A program made the translations under genes and the position numbers. A stretch of 64,000 bases of DNA from Oligoflexia bacterium (GTDB lineage Bacteria; Bdellovibrionota; UBA1018), in NCBI GenBank assembly GCA_963758495.1, contig CAVWVI010000001.1, positions 64,001-128,000 of the forward strand, written 5' to 3'. Under the pieces are notes generated by a model, which was not told where the DNA came from, ran no database searches, and saw nothing but the letters and a program-made list of their open reading frames with translations. Shown one piece after another: positions 50,164 through 56,119 of this stretch (the first letter of the stretch is position 1; each line of letters starts with the position of its first letter).

Positions 50164-50388
50164 ATGAGTAAAGTTTCTGTGTGGAAAGCGAAGACAAATT
50201 TGTCAAAATTAATCCAGGATGTTTTGAATGGGGAGGAAGTGATTATTGCTAATCGGGACAAACCTCTTGTAAAACTTGTTCCTGTAGAAAATAAAGAGCG
50301 GAAGAGTCTACTGGGTTTATTTCAAGGAAAAATTTGGATAAGTAAGGACTTTCAAGAAATTCCAGAAGGTTTTGAGGATTATACGTGA
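50164..50388 (+). CDS. Phd/YefM-family antitoxin
   Basis: AKTNLSKLIQDVLNGEEVIIANRDKPLVKLVP. Confidence 0.9.
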   Translation: MSKVSVWKAKTNLSKLIQDVLNGEEVIIANRDKPLVKLVPVENKERKSLLGLFQGKIWISKDFQEIPEGFEDYT

Positions 50389-50780
50389 AGCAAAGTATAT
50401 TGTTAGATACTCAAGTCTTTATTTTTGCTTTGACTTCACCTGACTTAATTCCAAATAAAATAAAAAGGATAATCTCCAATCAAGAGAGTGAGTTTTATTT
50501 AAGCATGGCTAGCATTTGGGAAATGGCGATTAAGGCCAGTCTGGGGAAACTTAAGTTTGAGGGGTCAATCAAAGACATGGTTCAAACATCAGTGAAAGAA
50601 ACTGGTCTTGAAATTCTTCCTATTAAGGCGGAACACATTTACCGCATTGAATTAATGCCATTTCACCACAAAGACCCTTTTGATCGAATTATCATTGCAC
50701 AAGCTATGGTCGAGAAATTTTCAATTATGAGTAGTGATTCGGCATTTGATGACTATGAAGTCAAACGACTTTGGAAGTAG
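50385..50780 (+). CDS. vapC: VapC/PIN-domain toxin
   Basis: LLDTQ, SIWEMAIK, HHKDPFDRIIIAQA and SSDSAF. Confidence 0.9.
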   Translation: MKQSILLDTQVFIFALTSPDLIPNKIKRIISNQESEFYLSMASIWEMAIKASLGKLKFEGSIKDMVQTSVKETGLEILPIKAEHIYRIELMPFHHKDPFDRIIIAQAMVEKFSIMSSDSAFDDYEVKRLWK

Positions 50781-51150: not shown

Positions 51151-52578
51151 TTATTCATGATTTATGAACGATGAATTGTACTGATAGCCTACGCCGTAGT
51201 CTCCGCTTGGAGAGCCATGGTTGTCGTGAATGTAACTCAGGAATTGAGTAGATACGACAAGCTCGCAGAACCAGATGACAGCAAGAGCTTGGGTCGCCTT
51301 CTTCGTATTGCCCTGAGTATCCTGAGTATCCTGGATATCCTGGGTATTACGAAAAATGAGTTGAGCGAGCCATAAAAACTCTAAGGGAAAAGTGATCAAC
51401 ATATAATGTCGATAAATGAATACTCCTAGGAGCGTGATGAAAATTCCGTATCCCCACATACCGGCGCTTCTTAAAAAGTCAGTTTCAGATGAGCTTCCTA
51501 TGAATTGCGCTTTCCAATTTAAGGGATGTCGCCACGTTTTTATAAAAGCTTTAGAAAGAATGAAAACACCTAAAGCCAATAGGATCATATGAGCTAAAGC
51601 CACCAGATAGGTAGGTTGATCTGAAACCAGAGGATAAGAAAGAAACTGGGTAAATTCCCTTTCTCCCAAGCTATACCAGACTCCTAATCCAAGTGGGTCG
51701 GTGATCCATAATTGCCAGAAACTCGAAGTCAGGAGGGGGTGGTAATCTAAGTGAATTAAATAGCTAAAAACTGAGCCATTTCTGGGCTGCTCAAACATAT
51801 AAATCAGCCACGGAATGAGAGGGATCAAGCCGAGTAAGCCTCCTGAAAGCAAGGCCCTGTAATGGATTTTCTTATTTACTTTGAGGTCATATCCAAAGAA
51901 AAACGTCCAAAAAAAGAGAGCGCCCGTGAAAAAAAAGCCCGTCATATGAATTTGTCCAATCAGGACACCGATTAACCCCCAAATGAAGGCACCCCAGATT
52001 TTATCTCGGCGCCACCACCCCATAATCAGTAAACAGCAGAAAATAGGGAGCACACTTTGAGCCCAAATTTTTCGTTCAAGGATGATCATAAATGGATTGA
52101 CCGATGCGAGAGCAATGGCCCAAAACCATTCTGGCTTCTGTTCTCTGGGAACGGTTTTGATGGCAAATACGGTAAAAGCGATCAGGGCTAGGATATTGAG
52201 GATTTGAACTCCTCTCGCAAGTTCTGGAGGGGTATCGGCAGATATGATTTTACTGAGAGCTAGAAATACCCAAATACTCATCCCAGGATTTCGGGTGCCC
52301 ACACCTGACGCCATACCTAGCGCAGGAAGGGGCTCTACTACCCCTACCCTTTGAGTTCTTTCAAACATGAAGTGCTCGTCATACTTGTATTCTATATCTG
52401 CACCCCACATCACTCGGAGGATAGCTCCGATAGTCAGAGTCAGGGCCAGAAAATACTTCCAATTTCCAGATAAATTTTGTCCAGATAAGCTTTGTCCAGA
52501 TAAGATTTGTCCAGATAAGATTTGTGATGATAAATTTTGTGCTTCTTGAGATTCTATCTTTTTAAATATTTTGAGCAT
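51151..52578 (-). CDS. GT-C-fold membrane glycosyltransferase-like protein
   Basis: Multi-TM; KYDE acidic loop, ERKIWAQ and QIHMTG; N-terminal LSGQx 15-bp repeats. Confidence 0.65.
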   Translation of the reverse strand: MLKIFKKIESQEAQNLSSQILSGQILSGQSLSGQNLSGNWKYFLALTLTIGAILRVMWGADIEYKYDEHFMFERTQRVGVVEPLPALGMASGVGTRNPGMSIWVFLALSKIISADTPPELARGVQILNILALIAFTVFAIKTVPREQKPEWFWAIALASVNPFMIILERKIWAQSVLPIFCCLLIMGWWRRDKIWGAFIWGLIGVLIGQIHMTGFFFTGALFFWTFFFGYDLKVNKKIHYRALLSGGLLGLIPLIPWLIYMFEQPRNGSVFSYLIHLDYHPLLTSSFWQLWITDPLGLGVWYSLGEREFTQFLSYPLVSDQPTYLVALAHMILLALGVFILSKAFIKTWRHPLNWKAQFIGSSSETDFLRSAGMWGYGIFITLLGVFIYRHYMLITFPLEFLWLAQLIFRNTQDIQDTQDTQGNTKKATQALAVIWFCELVVSTQFLSYIHDNHGSPSGDYGVGYQYNSSFINHE

Positions 52579-52656
52579 CCCATTTCCGAACGTGAAAATA
52601 GGAAAATCCTGTGGTATCCACAGGATTTTCCAAAAACAGCTAAGATTTTTCTACTT

Positions 52657-52944
52657 TCAGTTACCTACTTTGCCAGAGCCAAATTTCGGGTGATTCTTTT
52701 TGCATGCCGCTATGATCGAGGGATCAATGGATGGAAGTGGGAGGACCGACTTTTTGGCGGTAGTTCCTTGCACTACGGGATCAATACAATCCATCCATAG
52801 ACCTTTGCCCTCTTTGGCTTCGCCTTTCACGAATCCTGCTTTCTCACAAGCTTCTTTAATTTGCTTGCAGGGACCTTCATTCGCTCGGGATAAGGGTCCT
52901 GATGCCAACAACATAACCGATAATAAATAAATTAAATTTTTCAT
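52657..52944 (-). CDS. Small secreted Cys-containing protein
   Basis: Signal peptide; PCKQIKEACEKAGF…GLWMDCIDP…AACK. Confidence 0.65.
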   Translation of the reverse strand: MKNLIYLLSVMLLASGPLSRANEGPCKQIKEACEKAGFVKGEAKEGKGLWMDCIDPVVQGTTAKKSVLPLPSIDPSIIAACKKNHPKFGSGKVGN

Positions 52945-53048
52945 GACTAAAATTCTAATTAAATAGCTCAATATGGCAAGTGAATAGTATGACTGTTGTA
53001 GGCAGCCAGCTATGAAACCCGTCCCTCACAAAATACCTCACAATGATC

Positions 53049-54632
53049 TTAATAATGAGGTGGCCTTAAAGGAACGTAATGCATCTCATCCACCGTGTCA
53101 TCATGCACTTCACCTTGGTCATTTTTGTGTTCTTCATAACGAGGATGGTTTTTATGATTCCCAAAATTCCAATGCCAAGGATTTTTGCATAGAGGACATT
53201 CAATTCCATTACATCCATCGATTCGGTGAACCACTTTTCCACAGTAATAACAGGGGCGGTTCACGGCGCCACTCTGTGTGGCCCCACTCATGAATAGCTC
53301 CATTTCTTCTTTTTGAGCCTTTTCAAATTCTTGGCAGGGGTTAGCGTGATCTTTCCCACATTGCAGGTACCCTTTAAAATCACAGAGTAAGCAAATATAA
53401 TAAATCGATTCTTTGGGGTTAAGAGGATCCAGGATCGCTCCTCCTGGACAATCGACTCCAGGGCAGGGAGTATAATCCGGATTCATTTTGTTAAAATTGA
53501 GAACTTGCCTTTGGGTGACTCGGGTCAGGGTTTTTTCATCTAAGCCAATATTTTTGAAAAAAGAAAGCTGGGTGATCTCTTTACACTGTGGACAAGTACT
53601 GAGTTCAGCTCCTCCTCCTTTGAGTTCACATTCTGCATAAAACTGGGCACACTTCAGACAAAGGACACACGAACATTCAGCAGGTCCTGTCTCACACCGC
53701 ACTGCATTTGTGCCATCCGGTGGGCCATCCCGTAAATCATCTCTACAAACAAGACAGGACTGTTCTACTTGCTGTTCCATCTGTTCCATCTGTTCTGGCT
53801 GTTCCGATCTATGATGACGGAGCAGTGTCATCTCATTTTCTTTTTCCTGATAATAAAGCTCTTTGCCTTGAGATTGAATGCGTTTGAGTAAGAAAGCTAA
53901 CACACGAGCGCTTTTTGAATGGGGATCTTGAGCTTCCACCTCTTTTAGATCCTCCAGTAAATTTGCTTTCAGTGTTTTTAACTCACTGCTTTGAGTGGCC
54001 TTTGTCAGTTTAGGAAAATAATAAAGAAGATAATAAGGGGGGGTCATTAAATCACGAGCATAAAATAAGGCGGTCCTGCCTTTCTTATTTTTAACTTCTG
54101 GATCTGCTCCATTTTTCAGGAGAGTTTTTACAATTTGAGTACGGCCCTTAACGACTGCCCAGATGAGAGCGGTGTTGCCATAATGATCTGTATGATTTAA
54201 CTCAGCTCCGTGTTTGATTAATAATTTTGTAACCTTGAGGTTGCCCTCAATTGTGGCCCATAAAAGAGCAGTGTTGCCATAATGATCGATATGATTTAGG
54301 TTAGCCCCATATTGAATGAGGATCTTTACAACCTCAAAATAGGCATAAAATGCTGCTATGTTGAGGGCACTATTGCCGTTCGTATCTTGCTCTTCAAGAT
54401 AGAGTTTCTGCCTACGGTTTACTTTTTCCTGGAGAGCCGCTTCATCGCGATTGATCCAATAAGCCAGGGTTTCCGTCCAAGTAGGGTGAGAGATTTCGCT
54501 CAGGAGTTTTACTATCTTCCGTTGAGGTGAATGTCTTGAATGCACGAGCCAGATCAGCTTAGGTTCTGTCGCATAAGACAGATTCAGTGAAAAAGCCAGG
54601 AGTGTGGAGATCACAATGAATCGACTCATCAA
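53049..54632 (-). CDS. Secreted ankyrin-repeat + RING1-IBR-RING2 (RBR E3 ubiquitin ligase-like) protein
   Basis: GNTAL-type ankyrins; RING1 CLVC…CSCVLCLKC…CPQC; IBR CPGVDC…CLLC…CGKDH; RING2 RPCYYCGKVVHRIDGCNGIECPLCKNPWHW. Confidence 0.75.
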   Translation of the reverse strand: MMSRFIVISTLLAFSLNLSYATEPKLIWLVHSRHSPQRKIVKLLSEISHPTWTETLAYWINRDEAALQEKVNRRQKLYLEEQDTNGNSALNIAAFYAYFEVVKILIQYGANLNHIDHYGNTALLWATIEGNLKVTKLLIKHGAELNHTDHYGNTALIWAVVKGRTQIVKTLLKNGADPEVKNKKGRTALFYARDLMTPPYYLLYYFPKLTKATQSSELKTLKANLLEDLKEVEAQDPHSKSARVLAFLLKRIQSQGKELYYQEKENEMTLLRHHRSEQPEQMEQMEQQVEQSCLVCRDDLRDGPPDGTNAVRCETGPAECSCVLCLKCAQFYAECELKGGGAELSTCPQCKEITQLSFFKNIGLDEKTLTRVTQRQVLNFNKMNPDYTPCPGVDCPGGAILDPLNPKESIYYICLLCDFKGYLQCGKDHANPCQEFEKAQKEEMELFMSGATQSGAVNRPCYYCGKVVHRIDGCNGIECPLCKNPWHWNFGNHKNHPRYEEHKNDQGEVHDDTVDEMHYVPLRPPHY

Positions 54633-56119
54633 GAATCGCTTAAGCTAGAACACACGAAAGCCACATCATTGGCTTTTGAATCAATCATCAAATCAAGAGG
54701 ATTCACTGAAATGAGTTGATTTCGATGAATGGATTCACGAGCAGGAATAAGGATTCGAAGATAATTAGGCGTGTAACCGGCAATCCATTGATTCTCTCCT
54801 TGTTTTTCCATCAGGACTTGATTGAGTTTAGAGCCACTCGAGGAATCTTGAGAGGAGCACTGCCTTAAAATAGAGCGGTAATGTTGAGTGAGTCGCTCCA
54901 TACTGAGCTGGGTGAGTTTACGAGCCCTTTGTACACGGGTAGCCTGAGGAACTGAAGCGGGTAATCGGGTGGCTGGAGTCCCTTCCCTTTCGCTATAGGG
55001 AAAAACATGCAGTCGGGTCCATGGAAGAGTAGAAAGTGCTTGATAACCCCATTCAAATTCTTCGTCCGTTTCTCCAGGAAATCCTGTGATCACATCCATC
55101 CCTACAAAAACTCCTCCGATTGGAGAAGGAATTTGAGCAATTTCTTCGAGGCAATCTTTCACTTCTTCAAAACCGTAGCGTCTTTTCATCAGGCGTAAAA
55201 TGCGACTGTGCGGACTTTGAAGAGACACATGAAAGTGTGGACAAAATCGAGGATTCTTTTTCATCAACTGGAGAATCTGCGGCGTGATTTCGGTAGGATC
55301 TAAGGAACTGACTCGGATTCTCTCGAGATCGGTTTGTTCAAGAATCATTTCAAGCAAATCACCTAATGCAGGTTGAGAACCCCAATCCATTCCGTAATCA
55401 CCGATGTTGGTCCCCGTAATGATGACTTCGCGAATCCCTTGCTGAATGAGCTGACGGATTTGCTCAATCAGCTCTCTGGGTCTTAAACTTCGACTCGGCC
55501 CTCGACCGTAAGGGATAATACAATAAGTACAAAAAGAGTTACACCCTTCCTGGATCTTTAAAAAAGCCCTTGTTTTGCTGGATTGCCCCTTTAAATGAGT
55601 GGGAGGGGTCTGAAATGAATCTATCGCGGGAGGCCATTCCCGGTCCATGGGATGTTTGGAGAGTAGTTGTACATATGATTTTGTAGTTCCAAGGATTTCT
55701 GGGGTTTCGGGTAAGGGGGAAGATGGGCTGAGGATATGCGAAGGTAAAGTAGAAAGAGAATTGACCTGATTGAGAACTAAATCAACAAGCCCCGGTTTGT
55801 TTTGATTTCCCACGACATAATGAACACCCGGTGATTGTGCTAAACTCTCTGGATCCACTTCAGCACCACAGCCTGTAACCACTACGACTGCGTTTGGATA
55901 ATCCTTGGATAGCTTTTTAGCCATCTTTCGGCTTTGTCGATCCGCTTCGTTCGTCACGGTACAGCTATTGACAATACAAAGCTGGACTTGCTCCTGACTG
56001 CTATCGCTCCCTTCTCTCGGCAACCAACCCCGATTTTGAAGGTCATCCTCAATGAGTTGACTGTCGGAGAGGTTGGCTTTGCAGCCTAAAGTTTTGAGAA
56101 TATACTGATTTTTTCTCAT
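54629..56119 (-). CDS. mtaB: tRNA t6A37 methylthiotransferase MtaB
   Basis: TLGCKAN, NSCTVT and radical-SAM QEGCNSFCTYCIIPYGRG. Confidence 0.92.
   Translation of the reverse strand: MRKNQYILKTLGCKANLSDSQLIEDDLQNRGWLPREGSDSSQEQVQLCIVNSCTVTNEADRQSRKMAKKLSKDYPNAVVVVTGCGAEVDPESLAQSPGVHYVVGNQNKPGLVDLVLNQVNSLSTLPSHILSPSSPLPETPEILGTTKSYVQLLSKHPMDREWPPAIDSFQTPPTHLKGQSSKTRAFLKIQEGCNSFCTYCIIPYGRGPSRSLRPRELIEQIRQLIQQGIREVIITGTNIGDYGMDWGSQPALGDLLEMILEQTDLERIRVSSLDPTEITPQILQLMKKNPRFCPHFHVSLQSPHSRILRLMKRRYGFEEVKDCLEEIAQIPSPIGGVFVGMDVITGFPGETDEEFEWGYQALSTLPWTRLHVFPYSEREGTPATRLPASVPQATRVQRARKLTQLSMERLTQHYRSILRQCSSQDSSSGSKLNQVLMEKQGENQWIAGYTPNYLRILIPARESIHRNQLISVNPLDLMIDSKANDVAFVCSSLSDS

Follow-up and report, generated by a model that had tools for sequence, protein, structure and literature searches.

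Does a bacterial chromosome encode a ubiquitin ligase of a class that is regarded as eukaryotic, and what would a bacterium do with such an enzyme? The question is raised by a reverse-strand gene in a 64,000-nucleotide stretch of DNA (the window) from an Oligoflexia bacterium (GCA_963758495.1, contig CAVWVI010000001.1, positions 64,001 to 128,000 of the forward strand), whose 527-residue product had been described, in an earlier reading made without database searches (the original prediction), as a secreted protein with ankyrin repeats and a RING-between-RING (RBR) module. The analysis reported here indicates that the C-terminal 243 residues are almost certainly a true, divergent homologue of the eukaryotic RBR module; what the protein does is less sure, and we think it probable, with a good deal of room for doubt, that it is an exported E3 ligase aimed at the ubiquitin system of a eukaryote.

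A divergent RBR module

Taken by itself, the module gives little away. Its 243 residues retrieved nothing relevant from NCBIfam, and a phmmer search of the PDB returned only a retroviral Gag zinc knuckle (E 0.013) and, at E-values of 0.27 and 1.2, the RING1 of RNF144A, none of these matches being significant. A word-indexed homolog search with the module found only the protein itself, the same kind of search with a profile of the divergent subfamily (A3, described below) found four proteins, none of them named, and a single-protein search of 40 relatives gave a best E-value of 0.0045, with fragments of no more than 85 query residues. Family profiles and a fold predicted from a multiple sequence alignment are needed to reveal the module.

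An exhaustive HMMER search of 1.84 billion representatives yielded 108 proteins at E ≤ 1e-3, 44 of them at E ≤ 1e-10. When 58 relatives were scanned, 45 matched Pfam IBR, IBR_1 or IBR_2 at E ≤ 0.01 and 15 reached the curated IBR cut-off, and most of the 58 also have N-terminal ankyrin repeats. Profile A2, a 22-row alignment of the domain, was searched against all PDB sequences and matched ARIH2 at an E-value of 5.9e-30, together with ARIH1, parkin, HOIL-1, CUL9, HOIP, RNF216 and RNF144A, each match being a single stretch from RING1 through RING2. Because A2 includes a few canonical-looking rows, a search was also run with profile A3, whose 11 rows come from the divergent subfamily only; this matched parkin at 6.9e-10, ARIH2 at 5.9e-9, and HOIP and HOIL-1 at about 1e-5, again in single stretches across the whole module. 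E-values of this order exclude a chance origin of the Cys/His pattern.

The predicted fold points the same way. AlphaFold run on the single sequence gave a model with a pLDDT of 34, which is unusable, and AlphaFold2 supplied with an 80-row family alignment gave one with a mean pLDDT of 91.5. Compared with the PDB by Foldseek, the latter model has 34 matches at E ≤ 1e-3, with RBR ligases only among the matches listed and HOIL-1 at the top (2.1e-6), and RBR ligases or RING1 domains from them fill the first 11 rows of VIA-align, with Z-scores of 5.3–7.4; matches of single domains include the RING1 of RNF144A (Z 7.0), the RING1 of HOIP (Z 6.7) and the RING2 of HOIL-1 (Z 3.9). A protein-language-model comparison in the ESM Atlas places the protein nearest to ten large clusters, all of them RBR/IBR families and all eukaryotic. 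The RING1-IBR-RING2 order can be aligned as one unit to known RBRs, both in the profile searches and in Foldseek alignments of 200–240 columns. Three Cys/His clusters in this order behind the ankyrin repeats were the core of the original prediction, which had named a structure comparison as one way to check them, and on both counts the profiles and the alignment-based model agree with it.

Zinc ligands and a candidate catalytic cysteine

The column counts given here and below come from the 80-row family alignment, in which the RING2 core is recognised by pattern in 57 rows and missed in 23. RING1 has all eight of its ligands (C293, C296, C320, C322, C325, C328, C347 and C350), in columns that are conserved in 61–78 of the 80 rows; the fourth ligand is Cys, not His, and the same is true of the aligned RING1 of RNF144A. 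The IBR has seven of its eight ligands (C390, C395, C414, C417, C425, H429 and C433, with Y422 in the remaining position) in a C6HC pattern, and the corresponding family columns hold Cys or His in 72–80 of the 80 rows.

RING2 contains C461, C464, C479 and C482, a set sufficient for one zinc, and from its sequence we take it to be a one-zinc variant. The fifth cysteine of this domain, C474, lies in the motif DGCNGIEC, present just where it had first been noticed, and is the candidate for the thioester-forming residue: its column is Cys in 78 of 78 ungapped rows, and the context G-C-N-x-[MIV] is conserved with it. All 21 cysteines of the protein fall within the C-terminal 243 residues, and none occurs in residues 1–284.

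A signal-peptide-like N-terminus, ankyrin repeats and a linker

The N-terminus, MMSRFIVISTLLAFSLNLSYA/TEP, resembles a Sec-type signal peptide, as had been proposed: a basic n-region leads into a hydrophobic core of about 12 residues, and the c-region consists of small residues; neither a twin-Arg motif nor a lipobox Cys is seen in it. N-termini of the same kind occur in all five paralogs of the genome, and among the 71 database relatives of alignment A1 that start with Met, 33 are picked out by a crude hydrophobicity heuristic.

The ankyrin part is the one portion of the protein that is readily recognised. Its best Pfam matches are to Ank (1.3e-24, three stretches) and Ank_4 (7.9e-27, four stretches), it matches designed ankyrin repeat proteins (DARPins) and other ankyrin chains in the PDB at E-values down to 7e-59, and it has sub-threshold matches to models of Dot/Icm Ank effectors. 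The original prediction counted about four repeats; three are complete by Pfam, and the fourth is only partial. In the linker that separates the repeats from the module, the sole Pfam match is a sub-threshold one to Wtap (19.4 bits, cut-off 35).

A multi-copy family with a patchy distribution

The gene lies on a 578-kb contig (C1) of a five-contig, 3.66-Mb genome with even GC content that is 92.1% complete, with contamination estimated at 2.1%. Four other copies of the module are present in this genome, at 35–38% identity, and four more frames come from searching the genome with Pfam IBR; altogether about nine RBR-type genes are spread over all five contigs. Three of the paralogs are long (812–825 residues), with many ankyrin repeats, and the gene after each of them encodes a secreted protein of 400–413 residues with a signal peptide and a C-terminal FGE-sulfatase domain of the C-type-lectin fold. 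The pair of long paralog and FGE-like gene is kept in another genome (39% identity, E 1e-83) and on a metagenome contig (56%, E 2e-151), and the copy in the window has no such partner. A BTB/KCTD-like N-terminus considered for the FGE-like neighbours was dropped, as it had no Pfam match at E ≤ 0.001.

Four RBR-type genes have no ankyrin repeats (L027–L030, Table 1). L027, L028 and L029 have signal-peptide-like starts; L027 and L028, which carry a long insertion in RING2, pass the curated Pfam cut-offs for RING and IBR (IBR 35.0 and 34.0 bits, respectively), and L029 and L030 share a RING2-like motif, G-C-N-A-A-x-C…F-C-Y-L-C. At the C-termini of L027 and L029 there are weak, sub-threshold matches to Lcl_C (DUF1566; 17.8 and 18.5 bits), and L029 has a weak FGE match in addition. 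A decayed tandem copy (L002, C3:740275-743901, with open reading frames at 1957-2589 and 1495-1941, both on the reverse strand) lies 3.5 kb from the paralog in L003: its ankyrin region is gone, an in-frame TAG interrupts its RBR module, and only 240 residues are left of the adjoining FGE-like protein, which shows recent duplication and loss in the family.

Beyond this genome, a subfamily profile applied at E ≤ 1e-5 matched 4 of 401 genomes sampled across the phylum. All four belong to the window's own family, where relatives occur in 3 of 57 other genomes and the match counts in the four positive genomes are 6, 6, 4 and 1; none of the 343 sampled genomes of the phylum outside the family matched. 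The named genomes with relatives are metagenome-assembled genomes labelled Bdellovibrionales and Bdellovibrionia. Such a distribution, patchy and with several copies per genome, would suit a family of accessory genes that serve in interactions. Public records name the relatives "ankyrin repeat protein" or give them no name, which renders the family invisible to routine annotation. Related loci in other bacterial assemblies adjoin PBP1-type, TolC-like, MFS and SelO genes. On one metagenome contig (L035, 2354-3127 on the forward strand), a leucine-rich-repeat protein and SelO are encoded after an Ank-IBR relative (IBR 26.6 bits), which puts a second kind of eukaryote-like repeat protein next to an RBR gene. 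Viral contigs, scanned in a pattern-limited way, yielded 66 pattern matches and no relatives, a search narrow enough for distant viral relatives to escape it, and similarly narrow scans, by tblastn against phage records and by a search of plasmid records, found no match.

What the module would do

An RBR ligase needs an E2 charged with ubiquitin, and the genome shows neither partner: no ubiquitin gene was found with PF00240 in an assembly 92.1% complete, and no E2 gene with PF00179, the latter a weak negative in that the model matched none of 14 control genomes. On the simplest reading, the protein would act on the ubiquitin system of a eukaryote after export. In such a scheme the Sec signal peptide would carry the unfolded protein out of the cytoplasm, and the protein would then reach a eukaryotic cell, where RING1 would bind a host E2 charged with ubiquitin; the ubiquitin would pass as a thioester to Cys474 in RING2 and move from there to a target held by the ankyrin repeats. 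Export, the use of an E2, thioester catalysis, the eukaryotic target and the roles given to the ankyrin repeats and to a C-terminal His (see below) are what we infer. The host-directed effector of the original prediction, with ankyrin repeats that choose the substrate and a protist as host, may be supposed from the missing ubiquitin and E2 genes together with the export signal.

Several observations weigh against an active, exported ligase. Compared alone with Pfam, the C-terminal 243 residues match no family at E ≤ 10, and in the genome-level search with the Pfam IBR model (PF01485) the query scores 15.2 bits, below the cut-off of 24.3, so the IBR and RING profile search that had been suggested as a check fails on the protein itself. 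Structural support is moderate: the global TM-scores from Foldseek are 0.2–0.4, as expected of three small domains on flexible linkers, and the Z-scores from VIA-align are all below 8, which is moderate by that tool's own note. Within the module, one IBR zinc ligand is degenerate, with Tyr422 where 73 of 80 rows have Cys; the canonical catalytic His two residues after the cysteine is Gly476, a column where 15 of 78 rows have His; and RING2 lacks its second zinc site, W-H-W-N-F-G standing in place of the canonical [FW]-C-[WF]-x-C. The Gly after GCN and a degeneracy of some zinc ligands had been recognised at the outset, and the lost RING2 site now joins the latter. Because of these three departures the module could be inactive or altered. 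On the side of export, a zinc protein with 21 cysteines sent through Sec would meet the oxidising periplasm, and neither a VirB4-type gene of type IV secretion nor the type VI sheath gene (VipB) was found in the genome; the type II marker PF03934 (T2SS-K) is uninformative, as it matches 10 of the 14 control genomes. There is little else in the way of ubiquitin-related domains of eukaryotic type: a single F-box-like match (C4:466226-466339, forward strand, in a 361-residue frame) scores 23.3 bits where the cut-off is 24.3, with a model that matched none of the 14 controls, and U-box and OTU gave no match in the genome, weak negatives given that these models matched no control genome. In addition, the class is best known as predators of other bacteria, and bacterial prey are not known to possess ubiquitin.

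The changes in the module would suit a pseudo-ligase or decoy that has kept the RBR fold and perhaps binds ubiquitin-charged E2, or ubiquitin, without transferring it, thereby sequestering host components or serving as a zinc scaffold for the ankyrin repeats. Tyr422, the Gly at +2, the absence of the second RING2 zinc site throughout most of the family and a query score below the Pfam thresholds all speak for such a protein, whereas an invariant Cys474 column in a conserved context is hard to explain without catalysis, and the activity of HOIL-1 (below) shows that neither a +2 His nor a canonical RING2 half is indispensable; we regard it as unlikely. A function in a bacterial setting has to be considered too, with Cys-based transfer in the periplasm, at the cell surface or in bacterial prey, using some other acyl or protein modifier, together with the FGE-sulfatase- or lectin-like partners encoded beside its paralogs or fused to them. 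Predation on bacteria is the known habit of the class, the signal peptide directs the protein to the envelope or beyond, each long paralog shares a conserved cassette with the gene of a secreted protein resembling FGE-sulfatase, and the weak Lcl_C/FGE-like ends of other RBR-type genes indicate shuffling with typically bacterial modules. Against this, RING1 of an RBR exists to bind an E2 and the searches with PF00240 and PF00179 found no ubiquitin-like or E2 gene, ankyrin repeats joined to RBR or RING domains are a eukaryotic E3 layout, and zinc-thiolate domains suit a reducing cytosol better than the periplasm, so that we give this account only a small share of our belief.

That DNA of eukaryotic or viral origin was joined to a bacterial contig, by contamination or an error of assembly, could be argued from the purely eukaryotic membership of the large look-alike clusters. 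The one DNA data set listed as containing the sequence, a soil metagenome (9% of sampled words), has two exactly matching contigs within the gene, of 151 bases (53441-53591) and 211 bases (54355-54565), neither of which reaches the junction, and no RNA data set was listed; these data bear on neither chimerism nor expression. The gene has no introns and starts on a bacterial stop codon. The upstream TGA (54631-54629) overlaps either the TTG at 54632 or the ATG at 54629 that follows it immediately, in the sequence …TCT TGA TGA GTC…, as the original prediction had said of the mtaB stop, and the upstream gene is indeed of the methylthiotransferase family (MtaB/MiaB-like). This overlap, a 578-kb contig of even GC, paralogs on all five contigs, the bacterial neighbours of relatives elsewhere and the low contamination estimate make contamination or chimerism very unlikely, and a place in the bacterial chromosome, as first claimed, can be accepted.

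The HOIL-1 parallel and the C-terminal histidine

For an active ligase without the canonical residues, HOIL-1 (RBCK1) offers a precedent. The passages of PMC9834252 that bear on this point describe the +2 His as not fully conserved among active RBRs, and HOIL-1 as active with Trp at +2 and a non-canonical second half of RING2, its C-terminal His510 being needed for transfer to the substrate. The bacterial family resembles it in all three respects, with no +2 His in most rows, a second half of RING2 that departs from the canonical one and a conserved penultimate His. Of the 57 rows whose core is recognised, 55 have [W/F]-[H/D/N]-W-N-x-G instead of C-W-x-C; as HOIL-1 also departs here, the missing zinc site is a variant within the superfamily and not a ground for exclusion from it.

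The sequence H-[FYWL] forms the exact C-terminal end in 32 of the 57 rows with the core, and lies within three residues of the end in 34. The relatives end 22–48 residues past the RING2 core, the query 36 residues past it, and the last blocks of the AlphaFold2 model have a pLDDT of 90–97. A C-terminal His without a +2 His is found in 31 rows, a +2 His without a C-terminal one in 9, both in 3 and neither in 14, numbers that hint, in rows that are mutually related, at two largely complementary histidines. By analogy with the C-terminal His of HOIL-1, the penultimate His526, or else His487 of W-H-W, may serve as the general base. The likeness has its limits: the second half of RING2 contains a Zn2/Cys6 binuclear cluster in HOIL-1 and no Cys at all in the bacterial family, and HOIL-1 combines Ubl and NZF domains with neither ankyrin repeats nor a signal peptide.

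Relation to known ligases

With the eukaryotic RBR ligases (parkin, ARIH1/HHARI, ARIH2, HOIP, RNF216 and RNF144A) the protein shares RING1, IBR and RING2 in one chain, eight RING1 ligands, an IBR of C6HC type, a RING2 of the form C-x2-C-x9-G-C-N-x-[MIV]-x-C-x2-C with a Cys at the catalytic column, and a matching predicted fold. It differs from them in its Sec-type signal peptide, in the P-L-x-x-P-H-[FYW] tail of its family and in the replaced second zinc site of RING2, and searches of it turned up none of the autoinhibitory elements Ubl, REP and Ariadne. ANKIB1, which had been cited for having the same layout, does have N-terminal ankyrin repeats followed by an RBR module and is among the nearest full-length clusters (score 0.90), but 98% of the members of that cluster have an Ariadne domain, for which the bacterial protein shows no match (PF19422, E ≤ 10). 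ANKIB1 is not known to have a signal peptide, and the layout that the two share may be convergent.

Bacteria copy or reinvent RING/U-box, HECT-like and F-box ligases and have wholly novel E3 ligases besides. The bacterial effectors of the NEL/IpaH, HECT-like (SopA/NleL), RING/U-box (NleG/LubX), SidC and F-box (AnkB) classes resemble the proposed ligase in being E3s that use the E1, E2 and ubiquitin of a host and are encoded by bacteria lacking a ubiquitin system themselves, and ankyrin repeats are common among them; none is an RBR, and they are known to depend on type III or type IV secretion signals, not on Sec signal peptides. The statement in the original prediction that RBRs are regarded as a eukaryotic class is consistent with the relevant parts of two reviews, a 2026 effector screen and a 2015 cross-domain survey; in those parts, the reviews and the screen treat RBR only as one family of E3. 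A search of the full-text literature, with subscription-only papers outside its scope, found no report of a bacterial RBR ligase: queries for bacterial or prokaryotic RBR ligases brought up only rubrerythrin and unrelated uses of the term.

If it is real, a bacterial RBR family would complete the set of eukaryotic E3 classes that bacteria have taken up. Mechanistic work would gain from it a minimal RBR, naturally uninhibited, with 243 residues and about five zinc sites, and the family would test how far RING2 can be stripped down. An exported ubiquitin-ligase module of eukaryotic class in a soil bacterium of the Bdellovibrio group suggests interference with eukaryotic cells, and an uncultured Bdellovibrionia lineage with about nine such genes would be flagged as a likely partner or enemy of eukaryotic microbes, a role that would broaden what is known of the ecology of a phylum considered to prey on bacteria. 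The most far-reaching version would have these proteins be the first bacterial RBR ligases, exported through Sec, with one zinc in RING2 and an active site that the C-terminal His completes as in HOIL-1, forming ester or non-protein ubiquitin linkages in partnership with adjoining or fused FGE/Lcl_C modules of the C-type-lectin fold, in a branch of Bdellovibrionia that attacks or lives with eukaryotic cells and not with bacterial prey only; that all of this holds together is improbable.

The locus and its neighbours

The features of the gene, its surroundings and the related loci are collected in Table 1. The RBR gene starts with TTG, and ATG follows immediately. The methylthiotransferase-family gene is itself preceded, on the same strand, by mnmA and a gene for a class-V aminotransferase, and GC across the locus is 0.41–0.45. 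The small gene directly downstream is possibly co-transcribed with the RBR gene, as the last gene of the transcript; no Pfam family was found for its product, which is unrelated to the FGE-like partner of the long paralogs. The hairpin beyond it is the strongest terminator-like one of the region.

Table 1. Coordinates of the RBR gene, its parts, its neighbours and related loci (plain numbers, window positions; L numbers, positions within the locus unless a contig is given)
Feature	Position	Strand	Description and basis
Whole RBR gene	53049..54632	-	527 aa + stop; signal peptide, ankyrin repeats, linker, RBR module; open reading frame list and translation
Sec-type signal-peptide-like N-terminus, residues 1-21	54570..54632	-	MMSRFIVISTLLAFSLNLSYA; read from sequence
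Three ankyrin repeats and partial fourth, residues ~80-195	54048..54395	-	Pfam Ank, Ank_2, Ank_3, Ank_4, Ank_5, E 1e-14 to 8e-27
Linker, residues 196-292	53757..54047	-	Glu/Gln/Lys-rich, without Cys; translation
RING1, residues 293-350	53583..53756	-	C-x2-C-x23-C-x-C-x2-C-x2-C-x18-C-x2-C; aligned to parkin and ARIH2 RING1
IBR, residues 390-433	53334..53465	-	C-x4-C-x18-C-x2-C-x4-Y-x2-C-x3-H-x3-C
RING2 (catalytic domain), residues 461-491	53160..53252	-	C-x2-C-x9-C-x4-C-x2-C, then W-H-W-N-F-G; aligned to parkin and ARIH2 RING2
Cys474 codon, candidate thioester-forming catalytic Cys	53211..53213	-	aligned to the parkin/ARIH2 catalytic Cys column
C-terminal motif, residues 517-527	53052..53084	-	M-H-Y-V-P-L-R-P-P-H-Y, penultimate His526; sequence
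Upstream gene, radical-SAM methylthiotransferase family (MtaB/MiaB-like)	54629..56119	-	Pfam Radical_SAM 95.1 bits, UPF0004 66.9 bits
Small downstream gene	52657..52971	-	104-aa four-Cys protein with signal peptide; open reading frame list
Terminator-like hairpin, 3' of small downstream gene	52601..52631	-	14-bp stem; consensus scan, pattern match only
FGE-like partner gene, L003	167-1396	-	
FGE-like partner gene, L004	2238-3440	+	
FGE-like partner gene, L005	2239-3480	+	
FGE-like partner gene, L013	6733-7962		
FGE-like partner gene, L034	895-2124		
RBR-type gene, L027	C4:226948-228534		no ankyrin repeats
RBR-type gene, L028	C4:41198-42997	-	no ankyrin repeats
RBR-type gene, L029	C3:187825-189318		no ankyrin repeats
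RBR-type gene, L030	C2:117112-118407		no ankyrin repeats

Two further observations concern the neighbourhood of the gene. A multi-pass membrane protein of 475 residues is encoded at 51151-52578 on the reverse strand, with an N-terminal SGQ(I/S/N)L repeat, a C-terminal QDT repeat and no Pfam family at E ≤ 0.001, and at 50164-50780 on the forward strand there is a type II toxin-antitoxin pair, in which a Phd/YefM antitoxin of 74 residues overlaps a PIN-domain toxin of 131 residues.

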